Positions 52,368-61,313 of a DNA stretch of 64,000 nt are shown here, in pieces (within the stretch, counting starts at the first letter, position 1; the number at the start of each line of letters is the position of its first letter). The position numbers were made by a program, and so were the translations under genes. The stretch comes from Escherichia coli. GTDB taxonomy: Bacteria > Pseudomonadota > Gammaproteobacteria > Enterobacterales > Enterobacteriaceae. Location of the stretch: assembly GCF_009931435.1 (NCBI RefSeq), contig NZ_CP043414.1; one strand, written 5' to 3'. Below the pieces are notes generated by a model. The model made no database searches. It saw only the letters and a program-made list of their open reading frames with translations, and had not been told where the DNA came from.

Positions 52368-53006
52368 ATGCCCGGGCGCTTTGAACTAAAACCAACCCTG
52401 GAGAAAGTCTGGCACGCGCCGGACAATTTTCGCTTCATGGACCCGCTACCGCCGATGCATCGTCGGGGGATCATTATTGCCGCTATTGTATTGGTGGTCG
52501 GATTTCTACTCCCGTCGGATGATACGCCAAACGCGCCGGTGGTGACGCGTGAAGCACAGTTAGATATTCAGTCGCAATCACAACCGCCGACAGAAGAACA
52601 GCTGCGGGCGCAATTAGTCACACCACAAAATGATCCTGATCAGGTGGCTCCGGTCGCTCCAGAACCGATACAGGAAGGCCAACCGGAAGAGCAGCCGCAA
52701 ACCTCGCAAGTGCAACCTTTCCAGCCAGATAGCGGAATTGACAATCAATGGAGCTCTTATCGTGTCGAACCCGGTAAAACAATGGCGCAGCTGTTCCGCG
52801 ACCACGGACTGCCCGCTACCGATGTCTATGCAATGGCGCAGGTAGAAGGCGCGGATAAGCCACTGAGTAATTTGCAAAATGGGCAGATGGTGAAAATCCG
52901 CCAGAACGCCAGCGGCGTGGTGACGGGCTTAACCATTGATACGGGAAATAATCAACAGGTCCTGTTTACCCGCCAGCCGGATGGCAGTTTTATTCGCGCG
53001 CGGTAG
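52368..53006 (+). CDS. ytfB: Cell-division protein YtfB (OapA domain)
   Basis: 212 aa from ATG 52368 ([16 protein letters not shown]...), SD aggagg. Confidence 0.85.
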
Positions 53007-53637
53007 ATGAAGGGTCAACCAGAAGCCAGCTAAGGATCGTCTCTTTGATGACCTTACGCCTGGCTTCCAGTGCCTGCGGTGAAACCATACTGATGTGATA
53101 AACCAGGCCAAGCGTATGTTGGTTGATCAAATAATATCCTCCAAGAGCAGCAATATTAATATTCACCTGCAACGGGTCGATATCTGGCTTAAAAATATTG
53201 CGCCGTTTGCCTTCAGCTAATAATGACTCCATTAACTGTAAGTGTGCGTGGTTAATTTCTAAAAGGCGCTGTGATTTTGCATAATGCACCCCTTTACTCT
53301 GGTTTTCACTATGCACAATTTTTAAAAACCAGGGGTTAGCAATGTAATAATCCCAGGTGAAATCGATAATTTTCTCAATGGCTTTTTGTGGCGGAAGACC
53401 TGAGAAATCAAGGGATTTTTCTTTTTGCCGAATATCATTCCAGGTATATTCCAGCACTTCGATAAATAAATTTTCTTTATTACCAAAGTGATGATAAACC
53501 GTCTGTTTACTACACTCCGCGGCCTTGACGATATTATCGACTCTGGCCCCTTCGTAACCATATTCGGCAAATTCATTAACCGCACATAACAACAGCTTTT
53601 CCTTCAGGCTTTGTACGTTGCTGGTATCAAGATACAT
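52990..53637 (-). CDS. TetR/AcrR-family transcriptional regulator (probable full-length counterpart of K-12 ytfA)
   Basis: HTH ...[28 protein letters not shown]...; likely start ATG 53637 (MYLDTSNVQ..., 215 aa), the track ORF starting at 53697; divergent from the SDR operon, convergent with and overlapping ytfB. Confidence 0.8.
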
Positions 53638-53759
53638 TCCGCTTCCCCACGTCTTCTTCGTGATGACTATCTTAACCCGATTTGTTAGAAGCTCCACTAA
53701 AATGGCTAAAAACTCGCAATTTCATCGGGTTATCAAATGCTCTGTGATCATTATCGCAT

Positions 53760-53781
53760 ATCAACCAACTAGATGGTTGAT
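53760..53781. promoter_or_regulatory. Perfect palindrome in the divergent TetR/SDR intergenic region (candidate TetR operator)
   Basis: atcaacca-actaga-tggttgat, 8-bp perfect arms, about 70 bp upstream of the SDR start. Confidence 0.5.
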
Positions 53782-53848
53782 CTTTCTTGCCACACATTGC
53801 AAGCTAATCGTCACTTAAGGAAATAATATTCAAAAAGAGGGTTATCGT

Positions 53849-59898: not shown

Positions 59899-59990
59899 TT
59901 TTCAATATTTACTCTGTACCTGATTTTTATTGCCTATTACATGGAAATACCAACAACCAGGGTTTATTAATATAATTAAAAGGTTTAAAA

Positions 59991-61268
59991 ATGAATAAAA
60001 TAAAGAATTATCGATGGCATATGATTGCCCTCGTATGCTTTATCACTGTAATCAATTATCTGGACAGAACGGCGTTAGGTATTGCGGCTCCAACGATTAT
60101 GGAGACAACCGGAATAACCAAAGAACAATATTCATGGATTGTCAGTGCATTCCAGTTGGCCTATACATTGGGGCAACCGGTAATGGGCTTCTTTATTGAT
60201 ACCGTGGGTCTGAAGTTAAGTTTTGCGATATGTGCCGCAATCTGGGGCCTGGCGACAATGGGGCATGCCTTGACAGGAACATGGTCAGGTCTGGCATTTA
60301 TGCGCGCCCTGATGGGTTTCAGCGAAGCATCGGCAATTCCTGCGGGTGTAAAAACCGCATCAACATGGTTCCCGGCAAAAGAGCGTGGCGTGGCGACAGG
60401 TGTTTTCAATATGGGCACCTCACTCGGCGCGATGCTTGCTCCACCGTTGATTGCCTGGTGCATTATGTTTCATAGCTGGCAATTTGCGTTTATTGTCTCA
60501 GGTAGCCTTGCTTTACTCGCGGCTTTATTTTGGTTCTTTTGTTATAAAGATCCAAAAGATGCTAAACGCCTTTCTGATGAAGAGCGCCACTATATTGAGT
60601 CTGGGCAAGAACAGCATCTTAAAACAGATAAGAAAGAAAAAACGTCAATCAAGCATATCCTCAGCCAACGTAATTTCTGGGGGATTGGCATCGCGCGTTT
60701 TCTCGCTGACCCGGCATGGGGAACCATTAACTTCTGGGTACCGATTTTCTTCGTCGAAACGCTGCATTTTAGCCTGAAAGAAATTGCCATGTTCGTCTGG
60801 CTGCCTTTCCTGCTGGGCGATCTCGGCTGTTTAGCCAGTGGTTTTGTCGCGAAGTTCTTCCACGATCGCGGCGTGAGTTTAATTAACTCACGAAGAATTA
60901 CCTTCACTATTGCAGCCGTCATTATGATGACGATTGGCCTGGTGAGTATTGTCGAAAATCCCTACATCGCCGTATTACTGATTAGCATTGGCGCATTCTC
61001 GCATCAATGTCTTTCTACTGTTGCAGCAACTCTGGGCGGTGACCTATTCAAAAAAGACGAAGTAGCTACCGCAGTGGGTATGGCAGGAGCCTGTGCGTGG
61101 AGCGGTCAGTTGATTTTCAACCTGTTCATCGGGGCATTCGTTCACATTATCGGCTTCGCGCCGTTCTTTATTGCCCTGGCTTTCTTTGACATTATTGGTG
61201 CTATTGCGTTGTGGACGCTTATCAAAGTTAAAGATGAAGAACCACAAGTACAGTTAGCTACCCACTAA
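59991..61268 (+). CDS. MFS transporter, ACS (anion:cation symporter) subfamily-like
   Basis: 425 aa, about 12 predicted TM helices, N-terminal YLDRTALGIAAP motif typical of ExuT/DgoT/GudP-type organic-anion permeases. Confidence 0.8.
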   Translation: MNKIKNYRWHMIALVCFITVINYLDRTALGIAAPTIMETTGITKEQYSWIVSAFQLAYTLGQPVMGFFIDTVGLKLSFAICAAIWGLATMGHALTGTWSGLAFMRALMGFSEASAIPAGVKTASTWFPAKERGVATGVFNMGTSLGAMLAPPLIAWCIMFHSWQFAFIVSGSLALLAALFWFFCYKDPKDAKRLSDEERHYIESGQEQHLKTDKKEKTSIKHILSQRNFWGIGIARFLADPAWGTINFWVPIFFVETLHFSLKEIAMFVWLPFLLGDLGCLASGFVAKFFHDRGVSLINSRRITFTIAAVIMMTIGLVSIVENPYIAVLLISIGAFSHQCLSTVAATLGGDLFKKDEVATAVGMAGACAWSGQLIFNLFIGAFVHIIGFAPFFIALAFFDIIGAIALWTLIKVKDEEPQVQLATH

Positions 61269-61282
61269 TTATTTTAAATAAA

Positions 61283-61313
61283 AACGCTATAATTGAGGTT
61301 ATGGCGTTTTTAA
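61283..61313 (+). terminator. Intrinsic terminator after the MFS transporter gene
   Basis: Hairpin acgctataa...ttatggcgt followed by ttttt. Confidence 0.55.

Follow-up and report, generated by a model that had tools for sequence, protein, structure and literature searches.

The main bacterial routes for hexuronates, both the isomerase routes and those fed by lyase products, converge on 2-keto-3-deoxygluconate (KDG), and besides these there is an oxidative route to α-ketoglutarate; a 2019 review of hexuronate catabolism mentions no coenzyme A (CoA) step (PMC6353982). The only enterobacterial sugar-acid route with acyl-CoA intermediates found in the open-access literature is the 2-deoxy-D-ribonate pathway of Klebsiella michiganensis, which also involves major facilitator superfamily (MFS) transporters and a CoA-transferase (Price et al. 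2019, PMC6365646). What, then, is to be made of an Escherichia coli gene block that joins a CoA-transferase to a hexuronate-type permease? The block lies in a 64,000-nucleotide stretch of contig NZ_CP043414.1 (RefSeq assembly GCF_009931435.1), hereafter the window, and encodes seven proteins: a TetR regulator, a short-chain dehydrogenase/reductase (SDR), a triosephosphate isomerase (TIM) barrel protein, a crotonase, a CoA-transferase, a flavoprotein and an MFS permease. Its genes bear only generic product names in RefSeq, and no publication on the cluster was found in the open-access literature. Tentatively, at slightly less than even confidence, we propose that it is a functional TetR-repressed and presumably substrate-induced operon for the uptake and catabolism of a hexuronate-like sugar acid, that is, a ring-shaped polyhydroxy-carboxylate. 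The best reading of the route is a CoA-assisted pathway of uronate type feeding KDG and the Entner–Doudoroff pathway. The enzymes of this putative sugar-acid catabolic operon come from known superfamilies and their combination is undescribed; no earlier description of a route that uses both CoA thioesters and such a flavoprotein on a uronic-acid-like acid was found in the open-access literature.

Transporters and CoA enzymes of the block

What could the substrate be? The last gene of the block (59991–61268, plus strand) encodes an ExuT-like permease of the anion:cation symporter type within the MFS, assigned by its identity to K-12 ExuT, which reaches 47% over the full length (426 residues, E = 1e-151) as against 27% to GarP; with TIGR00893 it scores 315 bits, under the cut-off of 395. 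The permease gene is present in 1685 E. coli genomes, and in 1446 a tripartite ATP-independent periplasmic (TRAP) transporter, DctQMP, stands in its place. Together these make 3131 genomes, close to the 3114 that carry the operon, and the exchange point lies directly at the stop codon of the flavoprotein gene. The best 14 PDB matches of the TRAP binding protein, WP_000695891, all belong to one group of DctP structures from the Enzyme Function Initiative (EFI) era (E = 8e-71 to 7e-51), led by 4ovr, 4x8r, 4n8y, 4n15 and 4n91. Structures 4N8Y, 4X8R, 4N91 and 4MHF bind glucuronate and/or galacturonate (PMC7660916, PMC11668362). The Arg/Arg/Asn set that coordinates the uronate is kept in the E. coli TRAP binding protein, within the motifs GARSFY, KVRVQ and AEN (variant locus L086). 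4OVR is probably galacturonate-bound as well. From these likenesses both alternative transporters appear to be of the hexuronate type and to serve the same substrate class.

The enzyme genes begin with a classical SDR of NAD type (53849–54640, plus strand), assigned from NCBIfam and from its motifs. It scores 421 bits with PRK12745 (cut-off 250), a provisional model and the sole specific NCBIfam model passed in the block, and its translation contains TGAARGIG (for TGxxxGxG), NNAG, SSIN and YTIAK (for YxxxK); NAD is the probable cofactor in view of an Asp that follows strand 2. The RefSeq name '3-ketoacyl-ACP reductase' stems from this provisional model and is uninformative, and by equivalog cut-off the protein is not KduD (TIGR01832, 116.9 bits versus 338.85). 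The next gene (54650–55492, plus strand) encodes a xylose-isomerase-like TIM barrel (AP_endonuc_2), recognised through PF01261 in its Klebsiella and Salmonella orthologues and putatively an isomerase or eliminase of keto sugar acids. Its nearest solved structures, SMc04130 (3ju2/3qc0, E = 1e-86) and 7vpf, are without assigned function, the next one is the inosose isomerase IolI, and NCBIfam gives only weak matches, to IolO, OtnI and hydroxypyruvate isomerase. Among characterised proteins the TIM barrel thus seems nearest to inosose and keto-sugar isomerases.

The crotonase-type enoyl-CoA hydratase or 3-hydroxyacyl-CoA dehydratase (55496, or 55502, to 56278, plus strand) was identified with NCBIfam and by alignment with 5zai. 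It stays under the cut-offs of the NCBIfam models for short-chain enoyl-CoA hydratases; its best solved relative is this same 3-hydroxypropionyl-CoA dehydratase (5zai, E = 1e-40), and the alignment of GGGIELAL and NPEVMLG with the GGGLELAL and LPEINLG of 5zai shows that both catalytic-Glu motifs are kept. The two catalytic glutamates of crotonases occupy the positions of Glu144 and Glu164 in rat enoyl-CoA hydratase. It is followed by a fused α/β family-I CoA-transferase of the YdiF type (56288–57829, plus strand), which aligns with the YdiF structure 2ahu over residues 6–508, covering the fused α and β CoA_trans domains (E = 6e-113), and is 38.6% identical to K-12 YdiF; PF01144 is found in its Klebsiella and Salmonella orthologues. 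Glu324 (in SVEQG) aligns with the YdiF Glu at chain position 333 (in TVETG), presumably the residue that forms the enzyme–CoA thioester. Judged from such alignments, the catalytic residues of the CoA-transferase, the crotonase and the SDR all appear to be present.

The flavoprotein and its neighbourhoods

The fifth enzyme (57826–59898, plus strand) is a soluble flavoprotein of 690 residues from a distinct SdhA/FrdA/NadB-like family, recognised by the flavin adenine dinucleotide (FAD) domain FAD_binding_2 (PF00890, E = 2e-26) and by the fold of its AlphaFold model (predicted local distance difference test score, pLDDT, of 91). Foldseek matches the model to SdhA, FrdA and NadB with probability 1.0; the TM-scores are mostly 0.6–0.8 when normalised to the target and 0.53–0.68 when normalised to the query, and the identity is 13–19%. 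A structure search for a closer characterised relative returned only complex II, NadB and adenosine 5′-phosphosulfate (APS) reductase subunits, in the same 13–19% range. His437 (in QHNNGG) and Arg469 (in THGVxRPGG) are invariant in 30 sequences of the family and align, in a profile alignment, with NadB residues His351 and Arg386. In NadB and FrdA this flavin-side His/Arg pair binds the substrate carboxylate. Is the protein then one of these enzymes? The His of SdhA and FrdA that carries the covalent 8α-FAD has no counterpart in the family alignment, where the segment reads as an invariant GSDKQT, and NadB His244 is absent too, with the NQFH of NadB aligned to a family SQFG that ends in the invariant Gly276. 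The capping domain holds a catalytic His/Arg pair in both known enzymes (H244/R290 in NadB, H232/R287 in FrdA). That of the flavoprotein fails to align with NadB, the capping Arg could not be located, and the place is taken by a larger domain rich in invariant aromatics (W286, Y292, Y331, W333). The flavoprotein also carries an extra C-terminal β domain of about 90 residues, and neither the block nor the 75 related loci described below contain an Fe-S subunit or membrane anchor of the complex II type. With the flavin-side pair kept but the covalent-FAD His, NadB His244 and the capping domain gone, the protein is neither a fumarate reductase nor an aspartate oxidase, though it probably still binds a carboxylate beside the flavin. 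It founds a broad SdhA/NadB-like family without assigned function, which counts 419 clusters at 50% identity with E ≤ 1e-30.

In what company is this family found? From GTDB genomes 80 flavoprotein loci were taken, and the 75 with a called flavoprotein open reading frame (ORF) were analysed by clustering their ORFs and annotating the recurrent clusters; they span Proteobacteria, Planctomycetota, Verrucomicrobiota, Lentisphaerota and Bacillota. An SDR is the most frequent neighbour (34 loci), and the SDR of Phycisphaerae belongs to the same PRK12745 family as that of E. coli (331 bits). Eda-like aldolases (like 2-keto-3-deoxy-6-phosphogluconate, or KDPG, aldolase) and KdgK-like kinases (KDG-kinase-like) occur at 13 loci each, nearly always at 3 kb or less from the flavoprotein. 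Four modules recur. One consists of TetR, SDR, TIM barrel and flavoprotein, with a Gfo/Idh/MocA dehydrogenase and an MFS permease as optional members (other Enterobacterales, Lentisphaeria, Opitutae, Betaproteobacteria). Another has a sugar ABC transporter, two GMC oxidoreductases, LacI, a Gfo/Idh/MocA protein resembling levoglucosan dehydrogenase, the flavoprotein, KdgK and Eda (Rhizobiales, Rhodobacterales). The third combines an old yellow enzyme (OYE) or OYE-GltD protein, SDR, Eda-like aldolase, at times a BNR_4 protein, flavoprotein and KdgK-like kinase (Planctomycetota and other anaerobes), with a glycoside hydrolase family 28 (GH28) galacturonidase-like gene beside one such locus and a GH4 gene beside another. 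The fourth holds a YdiF-type transferase, crotonase, MaoC hydratase, acyl-CoA dehydrogenase, electron transfer flavoprotein (ETF) and TRAP transporter (a betaproteobacterium, a Desulfobacterales genome and some Alphaproteobacteria). The trio of SDR, TIM barrel and flavoprotein is also found where CoA enzymes are missing, as in Brenneria and Pseudescherichia, whose flavoprotein is 58% identical. The recurrent SDR, Eda-like and KdgK-like neighbours point to the SDR and the flavoprotein as the evolutionary core, repeatedly tied to enzymes of 2-keto-3-deoxy sugar acids, and the CoA-transferase and crotonase would be one of several interchangeable accessory modules.

Some of these loci deserve a description of their own. 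Uncultured anaerobes have the flavoprotein fused to, or standing directly before, an OYE-type (Oxidored_FMN) protein (locus L005 10001–13255, protein P0141 of 1084 aa; also L089 and L090), which may be its electron-transfer partner. A conserved operon of Phycisphaerae and other Planctomycetota sits beside uvrA (L052, L061, L064, L065, L072, L074; about 4000–14500) and encodes an OYE-GltD fusion, a PRK12745 SDR, an Eda-like aldolase, a BNR_4 protein, the flavoprotein, a KdgK-like kinase and an MtnA-like sugar-phosphate isomerase. The Rhodobacterales and Rhizobiales cluster (L021, L024, L026, L028, L037, L049, L059 and others) has a sugar ABC transporter of the CUT1 family and a Gfo/Idh/MocA protein that scores 304 bits, below the levoglucosan-dehydrogenase cut-off; it has the appearance of an oxidative route, so far undescribed, that leads from a neutral sugar or glycoside to KDG. 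In K-12 the ydi cluster (L096 9122–22728; ydiM-ydiN-ydiB-aroD-ydiF-ydiO-ydiP-ydiQRST-fadK) places quinate/shikimate enzymes beside CoA and ETF redox proteins, an architecture that resembles the betaproteobacterial flavoprotein locus L014.

Gene order, control and history

The gene order is that of a compact transcription unit behind a divergent regulator. The TetR/AcrR-family regulator, the full-length form of K-12 'ytfA', is encoded on the minus strand at 52990–53637 (215 aa); its longest ORF runs over 52990–53697, and the ATG at 53637 is the start used in the RefSeq orthologues. The divergent control region between this gene and the operon spans 53638–53848, as delimited by the sequence and by cross-genus alignment. 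The gaps between the enzyme genes measure 9, 3 (or 9) and 9 bp, the flavoprotein start overlaps the CoA-transferase stop as ATGA, and 92 bp separate the flavoprotein from the MFS gene. All start codons are preceded by a Shine-Dalgarno-like motif, and all seven ORFs are full length, intact and on the expected strands. An intrinsic terminator hairpin (61279–61312, plus strand), which is AT-rich and was overlooked by a terminator scan, was confirmed by folding (15-bp stem, −15.6 kcal/mol, z = −6.2, with 0 of 200 shuffles as good) and ends the block. An earlier note on this DNA had described a divergent TetR gene, a five-gene operon, a permease and a terminator, with 3–9 bp gaps and one ATGA overlap; its ORFs, strands, spacing and hairpin were all found again.

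Control by the regulator is a plausible part of this picture. The Klebsiella and Salmonella orthologues of the TetR protein show the Pfam domains TetR_N (PF00440) and TetR_C_29 (PF17938), and NCBIfam gives only generic TetR N-terminal matches for the window protein. An inverted-repeat search of the control region found a 22-bp palindrome, ATCAACCAACTAGATGGTTGAT, at 53760–53781. About 18 of the 22 bases, forming its core, are the same in Escherichia, Klebsiella and Salmonella amid neighbouring intergenic DNA that has diverged, the footprint expected of a TetR operator, and Pseudescherichia vulneris has a related ATCAAC...GTTGAT palindrome. The 22-bp element is likely the operator. A consensus promoter scan of the control region gave nothing convincing.

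The flanks are cycA, fklB and ytfB on one side and yjfZ, rplI, rpsR, priB and rpsF on the other. The genes for ytfB and TetR are convergent, their 3′ ends overlap by 17 bp (52990–53006) and there is no terminator between them. The fklB orthologue of RMDEC465 (L087 2041–2661) has the recent RefSeq name 'bamJ, BamJ family beta-barrel-assembly machinery protein', and older records call it an FKBP-type isomerase. The segment between block and rplI varies (window 61313–62400; L001, ATCC 25922, 11423–13186; L086, TRAP variant, 13283–13395; L092 13468–14394): the window, K-12 and RMDEC465 carry yjfZ (DUF2686) there, ATCC 25922 has a hipBA-like toxin–antitoxin pair with a frameshifted hipA, the TRAP-variant strains have nothing, and Klebsiella and Salmonella have an EamA-family gene. 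In some E. coli assemblies single chains (P0008, 1078 aa; P0029, 1043 aa) contain CoA-transferase sequence (PF01144) and align with 88–99% of the flavoprotein length; such chains may stem from a frameshift at the ATGA overlap or from misassembly.

How widespread is the block, and for how long has it been there? The five enzyme genes are present at a coverage of at least 80% in 3114 of 5426 complete E. coli genomes (about 57%), and the seven-gene set occupies the identical ytfB|rplI site in Klebsiella oxytoca and in some Salmonella enterica. From this shared position the block appears to be ancestral to the family at that site and repeatedly lost, and not an island specific to E. coli. The term 'accessory block' in the earlier note was too strong in this respect, K-12 being a strain that lost it, and what that note said of K-12, a remnant of the regulator, proved right: K-12 has a 402-bp TetR pseudogene, truncated at its N terminus, and lacks window positions 53393–61369, and with them the operon, save for a 102-bp scar resembling SDR codons. 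This scar, between the pseudogene and yjfZ (L094 2904–3009), matches window positions 53938–54039 in the 5′ part of the SDR gene with 81% identity, and because of it the loss must have taken at least two deletions.

Could the block in the window, too, be a decaying remnant without current function? About 43% of complete E. coli genomes, and K-12, have lost it, which would fit such a fate. Between the window and ATCC 25922, however, the ratio of nonsynonymous to synonymous substitution rates (dN/dS) of the block genes is 0.00–0.095 (0.04 for TetR, 0.00 for the SDR) at dS values of 0.2 to 0.38, so the genes are maintained by strong purifying selection. They are not pseudogenes, a point on which the earlier note had made its reading depend. 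The full-length ORFs, the synteny kept in Klebsiella and Salmonella and the intact catalytic residues speak against decay as well; the selection data exclude it for practical purposes, and we regard it as extremely improbable. The divergence is uneven along the block. The genes from TetR to the flavoprotein differ from the common E. coli allele, represented by ATCC 25922, at dS 0.20–0.38 (93–95% nucleotide identity), and no more than 49 of 3152 genomes reach an identity of 95%; for the MFS gene dS to ATCC 25922 is only 0.043. Identity to K-12 is 96.0% in the left flank and 98.2% in the right one, and the best match to the window is RMDEC465 (98.7%). From this mosaic, recombination seems to have had a breakpoint between the flavoprotein gene and the MFS gene, and the window seems to come from an unusual Escherichia lineage.

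A possible route, its rivals and the known systems

How might these proteins work together on a uronate? The ExuT-like permease, or the TRAP system in other strains, would import the acid, and the YdiF-type transferase would form a uronyl- (or aldonyl-) CoA. The two-Glu crotonase could then use the acidified α-proton to eliminate the β-hydroxyl and give a 2-keto-3-deoxy or 4-deoxy-5-keto acid, the same outcome as that of the metal dehydratases or polysaccharide lyases in known uronate routes, and the CoA would be handed on to another molecule of substrate, as happens in the carnitine pathway. Isomerisation and reduction of the keto sugar acid would fall to the TIM barrel and the NAD-dependent SDR, in analogy to KduI and KduD. 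The flavoprotein may catalyse a redox step beside the carboxylate, either reduction or introduction of a C=C bond or an NadB-like oxidation at Cα–O, and the product, KDG or a close analogue, would be consumed by the chromosomal KdgK and Eda. Thioester-activated β-elimination is the most likely step for the CoA module. It would explain why relatives have a Gfo/Idh/MocA dehydrogenase or an OYE reductase in place of the CoA pair, these being other ways to activate the ring for elimination or deoxygenation. The hexuronate-type substrate, the functional enzymes and the KDG-linked family apart, all steps of this pathway are inferred. A bolder version, which we think unlikely, is that thioester and crotonase replace the metal dehydratases and lyases in a C4–C5 elimination, that the flavoprotein is a new SdhA/NadB-like class acting on carbohydrate-derived acids, and that the substrate is a uronate without a known bacterial monomer pathway, such as glycosaminoglycan-derived L-iduronate or another uronate from diet or host.

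Several observations weigh against a hexuronate-type operon. In the simplest scheme of dehydration, isomerisation and reduction the flavoprotein is formally superfluous, which leaves the role of the invariant member unexplained, and the block itself has no kdgK or eda gene. For the common uronates E. coli is already equipped with ExuT, UxaCAB and KduID. The substrates of relatives at 36–58% identity may be different, and Brenneria and Pseudescherichia, the closest clusters without CoA genes, carry an MFS permease of the aromatic-acid type and not an ExuT-like one (PcaK-like aromatic-acid:H+ symporter in Brenneria, 369 bits; a weaker match to the same MFS family in P. vulneris). The CoA-transferases at other flavoprotein loci are not orthologous to the E. 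coli enzyme: all pairs, YdiF included, are about 40% identical, so orthology among the distant loci was rejected and the enzymes would have been recruited independently in different lineages. The TRAP binding proteins near the flavoprotein in other lineages, considered as a guide to a common substrate, are only 22–36% identical to one another and therefore uninformative.

Which other chemistry could the same genes perform? The earlier note had described an uncharacterised catabolic unit for an anionic substrate, and this is supported, the transporters refining the substrate to a probably hexuronate-like one. It had found no match to cai, paa, fad, ato, prp or tcu, in agreement with the specific NCBIfam models, all of which remain under their cut-offs except the provisional SDR model; the PaaF, PaaG, FadB, AtoD-like and ScpC equivalogs are far below theirs for the block enzymes, and an assignment to cai, paa, fad, ato, prp or kdu was rejected on such scores. 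The β-oxidation-like route that it had suggested fares less well. Its substrate would be a short carboxylate, hydroxylated or unsaturated, that is activated by the CoA-transferase, desaturated by the flavoprotein as a stand-in for an acyl-CoA dehydrogenase and hydrated by the crotonase, after which the SDR would oxidise the 3-hydroxyacyl-CoA. All four activities are formally present, the closest relatives of the crotonase work on short 3-hydroxyacyl-CoAs, and the Desulfobacterales and betaproteobacterial flavoprotein loci hold acyl-CoA dehydrogenase, ETF, MaoC hydratase, CoA-transferase and crotonase. But no thiolase or lyase is encoded to complete the cycle, the TIM barrel is left without a role, and the flavoprotein has the SdhA/NadB fold with a carboxylate-type His/Arg pair and not the fold of an acyl-CoA dehydrogenase. 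SDR, TIM barrel and flavoprotein co-occur without the CoA enzymes, KdgK-like and Eda-like genes recur beside the flavoprotein, and both transporters are of hexuronate type. The CoA-transferase and crotonase look like a variable add-on, so a plain β-oxidation is a weak reading, and a rather unlikely one.

A hydroaromatic acid such as quinate or shikimate would be close to a uronate in shape, and here the aromatic-acid-type permeases of Brenneria and, less clearly, P. vulneris find a natural place. The SDR and a TIM barrel resembling dehydroshikimate dehydratase would oxidise and dehydrate the ring, the flavoprotein would reduce or form the C=C bond of an enone or enoate, and CoA-dependent dehydrations would come next, on the pattern of cyclohexanecarboxyl-CoA pathways. 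Dehydroshikimate dehydratases share the AP_endonuc_2 fold with inosose enzymes, and IolI is the nearest characterised structure to the TIM barrel. YdiF, among solved structures the nearest K-12 protein to the CoA-transferase of the block, is encoded beside the quinate/shikimate dehydrogenase gene ydiB, aroD, ydiO and the ETF genes ydiQRST, and the acyl-CoA dehydrogenases at two flavoprotein loci score well, though below cut-offs, on models of cyclohexanecarboxyl-CoA dehydrogenase. Yet the transporters of E. coli look like ExuT and like TRAP proteins that bind hexuronates, and not like known quinate or shikimate carriers, quinoyl- and shikimoyl-CoA offer the crotonase no obvious β-hydroxyl, and the KdgK, Eda, GH28 and GH4 genes near members of the flavoprotein family suggest carbohydrates, all of which makes a hydroaromatic substrate improbable. 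Distinctly improbable, too, is a reductive electron sink like carnitine (cai) or caffeate respiration, in which the acid would be thioesterified, dehydrated to an enoyl compound and reduced anaerobically by the flavoprotein. This would leave the SDR and the TIM barrel unexplained, the E. coli block encodes no partner for electron input, and the link to kinase and aldolase indicates carbon assimilation and not excretion of a reduced product; in its favour are the parallel of CoA-transferase, crotonase and flavin reductase with CaiB, CaiD and CaiA, the homology of the flavoprotein to fumarate reductase, and its pairing or fusion with OYE and OYE-GltD NAD(P)H-flavin oxidoreductases in anaerobic Planctomycetota and their relatives.

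If the block does serve a hexuronate-like acid, what would follow from this? Assigning the substrate would supply a missing piece in the metabolism of the best-studied bacterium, the genes being present in over half of sequenced strains, including B2 and Shiga toxin-producing (STEC) lineages, and would also matter for the Klebsiella and Salmonella carriers. It would give a first function to a flavoprotein family of hundreds of diverged clusters in at least five phyla, which sits in sugar-acid clusters of polysaccharide-degrading Planctomycetota, Verrucomicrobiota and marine Alphaproteobacteria. Dehydration of a sugar acid as its CoA thioester, if true, would be a new biochemical solution in hexuronate catabolism, and a uronate without a known monomer pathway, if that is the substrate, would be a private nutrient niche for most gut E. 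coli, for Klebsiella and for some Salmonella. The hypothesis is genetically tractable, since MFS and TRAP transporters alternate and the block is cleanly present or absent in E. coli.

How does the block finally compare with what has been described? The deoxyribonate pathway of K. michiganensis (BWI76_RS23695–23730) was rejected as its identity, since both gene set and locus differ: that pathway uses a CoA-synthetase, β-hydroxyacyl-CoA dehydrogenase, thiolase, lactonase and glycerate kinase and, unlike the block, has no flavoprotein, TIM barrel or crotonase (PMC6365646). The K-12 ydi cluster (ydiMN, ydiB, aroD, ydiF, ydiO, ydiQRST, fadK) encodes YdiF, the paralogue nearest to the CoA-transferase in that strain, along with ring-acid enzymes and acyl-CoA redox proteins that depend on flavin, but its other partners differ and it lacks an SdhA-like flavoprotein, a crotonase and the TIM barrel. 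With CaiB, CaiD and CaiA the block would share the recycling of CoA from product to substrate, a crotonase dehydration on the thioester and a flavoenzyme acting on the enoyl product; its transferase, however, belongs to family I (YdiF type) and not III, its flavoenzyme is SdhA/NadB-like and not an acyl-CoA dehydrogenase, and it has an SDR and a TIM barrel in addition, with transporters of the sugar-acid type. The flavoprotein has the FAD-binding and C-terminal helical domains and the flavin-side His/Arg of SdhA, FrdA and NadB, from which it departs in the missing covalent-FAD His, the replaced capping domain, the added C-terminal β domain and the lack of Fe-S and membrane subunits.

The uronate systems come nearest in predicted chemistry. 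KduI and KduD (or DhuI and DhuD) convert 5-keto-4-deoxyuronate to KDG, and an isomerase with an NAD-dependent SDR would fit the TIM barrel and SDR pair. The block SDR matches KduD models at E = 1e-34, yet far below the KduD cut-off, and the isomerase candidate is a TIM barrel as against the cupin KduI and the RpiB-like DhuI; neither known system has a flavoprotein partner. The hexuronate system of E. coli (ExuT, UxaC, UxaB/UxuB, UxaA/UxuA, KdgK, Eda) includes a uronate isomerase, tagaturonate and fructuronate reductases and altronate and mannonate dehydratases, none of which has a homologue in the block, where a CoA-transferase, a crotonase, a TIM barrel and the flavoprotein stand instead, under TetR and not ExuR. 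What the two have in common is the ExuT-type permease, the predicted substrate class and KDG as the expected end point.

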